A stretch of 64,000 nucleotides of DNA, from assembly GCF_003334815.1 (NCBI RefSeq), contig NZ_QOWO01000017.1; one strand, given 5' to 3'. The DNA comes from Escherichia coli. Its GTDB lineage: Bacteria > Pseudomonadota > Gammaproteobacteria > Enterobacterales > Enterobacteriaceae. A program made the position numbers and the translations under genes. The notes below the pieces were generated by a model. The model was given only the letters and a program-made list of their open reading frames with translations. It made no database searches and was not told the origin of the DNA. The number at the start of each line of letters is the position of its first letter. The first letter of the stretch is position 1. Positions 51,759-51,944 of this stretch are shown here, piece by piece.

Positions 51759-51770
51759 CTTTGCCTCACT

Positions 51771-51826
51771 GTCAATTTGACTATAGATATTGTCATATCG
51801 ACCATTTGATTGATAGTCATTTTGAC
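51771..51826. promoter_or_regulatory. Three NorR enhancer sites (GT-N7-AC)
   Basis: GTCAATTTGAC 51771-51781, GTCATATCGAC 51792-51802, GTCATTTTGAC 51816-51826. Confidence 0.75.
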
Positions 51827-51881
51827 TACTCATTAATGGGCATAATTTTATTTATAGAGTAAAAACAATCAGATAAAAAAC

Positions 51882-51897
51882 TGGCACGCAATCTGCA
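51882..51897 (+). promoter_or_regulatory. Sigma-54 (-24/-12) promoter of norVW
   Basis: TGGCAC-GCAAT-CTGCA, GG and GC 10 nt apart, about 50 bp upstream of norV ATG. Confidence 0.75.
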
Positions 51898-51944
51898 ATT
51901 AGCAAGACATCTTTTTAGAACACGCTGAATAAATTGAGGTTGCT

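Follow-up and report, generated by a model that had tools for sequence, protein, structure and literature searches.

An intact K-12-type NorR enhancer and sigma-54 promoter between norR and norV in an Escherichia coli contig

The norR-norV spacer was analysed within a stretch of 64,000 nucleotides of the Escherichia coli contig NZ_QOWO01000017.1, hereafter referred to as the window. The two genes were read from the sequence as divergent, and their start codons, the norR ATG at 51758-51756 on the minus strand and the norV ATG at 51945 on the plus strand, exactly delimit a spacer of 186 bp (51759-51944) with 32% G+C. The features assigned to this spacer and to the three flanking genes are compiled in Table 1. 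An earlier note had claimed that a complete NorR enhancer and a sigma-54 promoter lie between norR and norV, and all of its coordinates turned out to be exact: the three GT-N7-AC repeats starting at 51771, 51792 and 51816 are present, all three also conform to GTCA-N4-GAC, and TGGCAC-N5-CTGCA is found at 51882-51897 on the norV strand. An Rfam scan of the spacer found no RNA family.

Table 1. Features of the norR-norVW region, with positions counted along the window.
Feature	Position	Strand	Remark
norR, NO-sensing sigma-54 enhancer-binding protein, 504 aa, GAF/AAA+/HTH	50244-51758	minus	K-12-identical
norR Shine-Dalgarno GAGG	51764-51767	minus	5 nt before ATG
Minimal NorR enhancer (UAS), 66 bp, all three sites	51766-51831	+	exact match to 'NorR123' oligonucleotide (PMC2831303)
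NorR site 3 (distal) GTCAATTTGAC	51771-51781		outer 4 bases form a perfect palindrome
NorR site 2 GTCATATCGAC	51792-51802		centre 21 bp from site 3 centre
NorR site 1 (promoter-proximal) GTCATTTTGAC	51816-51826		centre 24 bp from site 2 centre
Probable IHF site AAACAATCAGATA	51863-51875	+	2 mismatches to WATCAANNNNTTR
Sigma-54 -24/-12 element TGGCACGCAATCTGCA	51882-51897	+	GG 51883-51884, GC 51895-51896, canonical GG-N10-GC
Predicted norVW transcription start	51907-51909	+	12-13 nt after the -12 GC
norV Shine-Dalgarno GAGG	51936-51939	+	5 nt before ATG
norV, flavorubredoxin NO reductase, 479 aa	51945-53384	+	5 substitutions vs K-12, untruncated
norW, NADH:flavorubredoxin reductase, 377 aa	53381-54514	+	6 substitutions vs K-12, untruncated

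The segment 51700-52000 (301 bp) was 100% identical to that of E. coli K-12 MG1655, where the matched stretch is annotated as norR and, divergently, norV-norW. The same segment found a match in every complete E. coli genome searched (5,426 of 5,426), and in the records listed this match covers norR and norV. Furthermore, the published 21-mer termed 'NorR-binding site 1', GATAGTCATTTTGACTACTCA (PMC2831303), corresponds exactly to 51812-51832 and contains GTCATTTTGAC, which means that the published site order counts from the promoter, with site 1 at 51816 and site 3 at 51771. The spacer was identified as K-12-type because of its sequence identity with the experimentally characterised norR-norV region and the exact 66-bp enhancer with its three sites; these also bear out the previous suggestion that the arrangement matches the known architecture of the norVW promoter.

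A considerable body of experimental work exists for this very sequence. Three GT-(N7)-AC inverted repeats are bound by NorR, and when GG-(N7)-CC takes the place of any single repeat, norV-lacZ is no longer induced, so that all three are required in vivo; IHF binds in the interval from the enhancer to the norV start, and open complexes were obtained with NorR devoid of its GAF domain, sigma-54 polymerase, IHF and ATP (PMC2831303). In genomic SELEX (gSELEX) with NorR the norR/norV spacer was the only bound site (PMC8249747), and gSELEX with the RpoN holoenzyme produced a peak in the same spacer (PMC8743547). For the K-12 sequence, which is identical, published work describes NO-inducible transcription that depends on norR and rpoN (PMC2831303, PMC4987338).

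One could regard the GT-N7-AC repeats and TGGCAC-N5-CTGCA as chance matches in AT-rich intergenic DNA that have no regulatory role, and the less specific counts agree with this: bare GT-N7-AC was found 209 times in the window vs 185 expected, at least three copies arose in roughly 1.6% of the shuffled versions of the 186-bp spacer, and the -24/-12 motif alone, with at most one mismatch, gave a single match vs 1.8 expected in 64 kb, a count at chance level and not significant. The discriminating motif is GTCA-N4-GAC, bare GT-N7-AC being frequent by chance. It gave 16 strand matches in the window vs 5.6 expected, a number reached in none of 100 shuffles. More than one such site was present in none of 20,000 shuffled spacers, and three of them within 60 bp in none of 300 block shuffles of the window (200-bp blocks), i.e. 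the triple never arose by shuffling. A chance origin is, moreover, at odds with the published experiments, in which fragments of exactly this sequence bound NorR and supported the formation of open complexes by sigma-54 polymerase.

Another occurrence of GTCA-N4-GAC, GTCAACGTGAC at 51982-51992, was considered as a fourth NorR site and rejected as a coding by-product located 38 nt inside norV. It is made up of the codons GGT-CAA-CGT-GAC (G-Q-R-D), and the motif is lost in 5 of 8 orthologues through a synonymous Gly codon, with the protein sequence kept.

To place the three sites in a broader context, one genome per species was scanned for three GTCA-N4-GAC sites spaced 7-17 nt apart, which returned at least 120 matches. 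Among the matches listed, 93 of 120 were equally spaced and 27 aperiodic; a NorR homologue adjoined 17 of the 27 aperiodic ones vs being near 1 of the 93 with equal spacing. Seven Enterobacteriaceae were among the matches listed, namely E. albertii, two Citrobacter and four Enterobacter, all with norR divergent from norV-norW. In all eight enterobacterial sequences (window included) the NorR sites were positioned at exactly -111, -90 and -66 from TGGCAC, TGGCACG was invariant and norV started 60-68 nt after TGGCAC. The orthologues compared had been retrieved through the three-site DNA pattern itself, which set loose limits on their inter-site gaps; neither the 55-nt distance between the last site and the promoter nor the promoter as such was imposed by the pattern, so that their invariance constitutes independent evidence. 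The other enterobacterial spacers thus have the sites, TGGCACG and the gene order in common with E. coli and differ in the -12 element (CTGCA, TTGAT or TCGCA) and in the stretch between the enhancer and the IHF site, which is not conserved. Positions and spacing of the sites that stay invariant in eight species while the surrounding spacer diverges, together with the footprinting and mutagenesis published for a sequence identical to this one, refute the notion of chance matches, to which we assign virtually no probability.

Equally spaced three-site matches were set aside: those inspected, from Bacteroidota, an alphaproteobacterial MAG and MAGs of unassigned phylum, were short tandem repeats unrelated to NorR. 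Such tandem repeats with GTCA-N4-GAC have a period of 18-28 bp (L011, L058, L070, L076, L079, L100 and many more) and were seen in Bacteroides and Prevotellaceae genomes, as well as in many places of a single MAG, JABTUV010000001.1, in which TGTCATTTCGACCGCAGCACGC is repeated 4-5 times and flanked by GGGAGAAATCTCCC.

As for the promoter, the element at 51882 is the joint best match of the window to the 17-mer YTGGCACGRNNNTTGCW, with 2 mismatches, tied with an intragenic match at 29303. In the latter the conserved A of GGCAC is missing, and the coordinate offset to K-12 places it in a frameshifted MFS transporter pseudogene annotated there. It is the strand, the position, the conservation and the published experiments, and not the rarity of the motif, that make the promoter call convincing. 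The last NorR site precedes the element by 55 nt, and the norV ATG follows it at 63 nt. Judging from the geometry of sigma-54 promoters, transcription of norVW is predicted to start at about 51908, which would place the centre of the promoter-proximal NorR site approximately 87 bp upstream of the start. The region of the norV Shine-Dalgarno sequence, TGAGGTTGCTATG, is common to 5 of the 8 sequences, Enterobacter BIGb0383 having TGAGGTGGCTATG in its place and Bisph1 and Ag1 differing more.

Elsewhere in the window, a weak match to the sigma-54 consensus with 3 mismatches, CTGGCATGATTTGTGAA, was noticed at 57612-57628 on the minus strand, 38-54 nt upstream of hydN, the position of which (57047-57574, minus strand) was obtained by aligning the window to annotated K-12. 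The match probably represents the FhlA-dependent promoter of hydN-hypF, and the published RpoN gSELEX list includes a peak for that promoter (PMC8743547).

In the interval between enhancer and promoter, where a check for an IHF site had been suggested, the best match to WATCAANNNNTTR was a weak one, that at 51863-51875 with 2 mismatches, which is the background level of about 9 per kb. We place a putative IHF site there with moderate confidence, because the aligned position, -19 from TGGCAC, carries the consensus in other genera and IHF binding is known from the literature. At -19 the IHF consensus is perfect or near-perfect (0-1 mismatches) in 6 of 6 non-Escherichia species, all Citrobacter or Enterobacter (loci L020, L030, L062, L063, L073 and L075), whereas it is degenerate in E. 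albertii and in E. coli K-12-type sequences. The E. coli isolate AF3 has 1 mismatch at this position in the alignment. IHF-like matches with 1 mismatch at 51796-51815, between NorR sites 2 and 1, were discarded as the bend site, as they lack conservation beyond Escherichia; a synthetic-biology paper (PMC11334186) mentions a 'second IHF site' in PnorV. The decay of the consensus in Escherichia makes it conceivable, if unlikely, that E. coli norVp leans less on IHF than its relatives do or makes use of another bend site. Neither this nor the occurrence of natural enhancer-deletion alleles alters the identity of the element in the window.

On the other side of the spacer, NorR aligned with the NCBIfam model NF003451 over residues 2-503 at 822 bits (cut-off 476). 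A longer norR reading frame from an ATG at 51833 (529 aa) was rejected and 51758 taken as the true start, on the grounds that GAGG stands 5 nt upstream of it, the NF003451 alignment begins at residue 2 and orthologue conservation is lost upstream of 51758. The norR Shine-Dalgarno sequence adjoins the distal NorR site, and the norR transcript should therefore start within or beyond the enhancer; the NorR sites would then share DNA with the promoter or leader of norR, which fits the autoregulation described in the literature.

These relations raise the question of whether the three sites are mainly an operator for norR autoregulation, the activation of norVW being secondary. The distal site starts at 13 nt from the norR ATG, directly beside the Shine-Dalgarno sequence, so that bound NorR must overlap the promoter or leader, and NorR has indeed been described as regulating norVW and its own divergent gene (PMC11334186, PMC8249747). 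Against this, a simple scan of the norR strand of the spacer found no sigma-70-type promoter, mutation of any single site suffices to abolish norV-lacZ induction (PMC2831303), and the distance of 55 nt to the sigma-54 promoter, which is the same from genus to genus, indicates selection for the geometry of activation. Autoregulation is better seen as a second function of the same sites than as an alternative to activation, and an arrangement devoted primarily to norR is exceedingly improbable.

Within the collection of complete genomes, the isolate AF3 (NZ_OZ547117.1, from a blood culture in the UK; 1 of 5,426 complete E. coli) carries a 45-bp deletion in the norR-norV spacer. In the alignment of L124 2489-2629 to window 51771-51815, the deletion has fused site 3 to site 1, leaving a single GTCATTTTGAC, and since all three sites were required in the published mutagenesis, NO is predicted not to induce the AF3 allele.

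Comparison of the window from 38101 to 64000 with MG1655 revealed that all 36 differences fall inside 52253-54055 (1.8 kb), the other 24 kb being identical. This patch takes in the 3' two-thirds of norV and the 5' half of norW and begins 308 bp after the norV ATG, with the regulatory region untouched; by its appearance in the alignment it looks like a recombination patch. The tRNA array at 37667-38114, beside tRNA-Ser(GCT), is a separate point of difference: it has two tRNA-Arg(ACG) genes vs four in MG1655, and the window is 414 bp shorter at this place.

A regulatory region can be intact and its module functionally dead, as in lineages that have lost norV by deletion or a site of the enhancer. 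Natural loss of this kind is known, AF3 being a case in point, and the products of the window depart from K-12 by 5 (NorV) and 6 (NorW) amino-acid changes. Both proteins, however, match NCBIfam equivalog models end to end and well above the cut-offs, NorV with 1043 bits to NF003954 (cut-off 711, residues 1-479 of 479 aligned) and NorW with 685 bits to NF003437 (cut-off 392, full length). Furthermore, the stretch 52200-54100 is at least 99% identical in 137 of 5,427 E. coli records (and 100% in none), so closely similar alleles circulate, and norR and the entire spacer are identical to K-12. A dead module is, for these reasons, very improbable. With norR, norV and norW all of full length and above their NCBIfam cut-offs, the assertion of the earlier note that the detoxification module is intact holds at sequence level; activity also needs rpoN, ihfA and ihfB, all of which are beyond the window.

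The way in which the region would operate can be outlined from published work on its K-12 counterpart, to which it is identical. NorR dimers would occupy the three GTCA-N4-GAC sites and nucleate a NorR hexamer on the DNA; the site centres, being 21 and 24 bp apart and thus separated by about two helical turns, fit three dimers that assemble into a hexamer along the same face of the helix. On TGGCAC-N5-CTGCA, 55 bp past the last NorR site, sigma-54 RNA polymerase would wait in a closed complex, and IHF would bend the AT-rich DNA in between, so that the enhancer-bound hexamer could touch the polymerase. NO bound to the non-haem iron of the NorR GAF domain releases the AAA+ ATPase from repression; the hydrolysis of ATP would then open the promoter and allow norV and norW to be transcribed from about 51908. 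The position of the three NorR sites immediately upstream of the norR ribosome-binding site would, by overlap with the norR promoter or leader, also allow autoregulation.

Taken as a whole, the spacer is, with a probability of roughly 0.97, the canonical control region between the divergent genes of the E. coli norR/norVW nitric-oxide detoxification module, and no evidence contradicts this. The present analysis showed the elements, their statistical excess and their identity with K-12, their conservation at constant distances from genus to genus, and that all three genes are intact, while NorR and IHF binding, the need for all three sites and the sigma-54 dependence come from the literature; the exact start site and the geometry of autoregulation are our deductions. 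The element was already known in full detail and is present here as a sequence-perfect K-12 copy, real but ordinary, and it advances no open questions. Its value lies in annotation only, that is, in recording a complete K-12-type NO-responsive norR-norVW module with enhancer and promoter unaltered. PnorV is widely used as an NO biosensor, hence the behaviour of the characterised promoter is to be expected from a sequence-perfect copy as well.

The closest known system is norVp of E. coli K-12, which reportedly depends on NorR, sigma-54 and IHF, as Tucker and co-workers in 2004 and 2010, Hutchings in 2002 and Gardner in 2003 are said to have established. The window shares with it the segment 51700-52000, the three sites, the -24/-12 element, the flanking genes and norR, with no regulatory differences, and departs from it in the structural genes norVW by the 36 substitutions of the 1.8-kb patch. 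With other promoters served by enhancer-binding proteins, such as NtrC-glnAp2, NifA-nifH and PspF-pspA, the region has in common a -24/-12 element with an upstream activating sequence, a bend of the IHF type as published for norVp, and likewise the ATP-dependent formation of open complexes by an AAA+ hexamer. It differs from these in that the norVW enhancer has three sites, all of them needed, instead of the usual two, and in that the signal for NorR is NO on an iron-containing GAF domain and not phosphorylation.

The hmp/fhp promoters of Pseudomonas and beta-proteobacteria, controlled by NorR (FhpR), are a more distant counterpart. In Pseudomonas and Comamonas the gene divergent from norR is the flavohaemoglobin gene hmp, as the literature states. 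Our scan recovered it as such in Pseudomonas (L012, NF009805, 562 bits) and, from the list of open reading frames, in Comamonas (L034). These promoters likewise have three GTCA-N4-GAC sites, a divergent norR homologue (46-54% identity) and a TGGCA-type -24 element, while their target is a flavohaemoglobin vs the flavorubredoxin of E. coli. The gaps between sites in the Pseudomonas, Comamonas and Mitsuaria matches differ from those of the norV type, being 15/8, 14/8 or 14/10 in the hmp/fhp type vs 10/13 in enterobacteria; these gaps were found in the aperiodic matches L005, L006, L012, L014, L031, L034, L037, L049, L068 and L069, all adjoining a NorR homologue. Moreover, the -24 element follows the last site by 41 nt where this was measured (L034, L068, L069) vs 55 nt in the norV type.

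Three further Pseudomonas spp. loci, away from norR, have three NorR-type sites with a TGGCA(C/T) -24 element at 41 nt: L015 (1716-1772), L029 (4448-4503) and L051 (3981-4035). Downstream of them lie, respectively, a gene for an SDR-type oxidoreductase, a 169-aa followed by a 516-aa ORF, and a 506-aa open frame, and these genes may be additional members of the NorR regulon. In the cases measured, the norV-type and hmp-type architectures are each internally fixed, and the spacer of the window belongs with the former in its 10/13 gaps and its 55-nt distance to the promoter.
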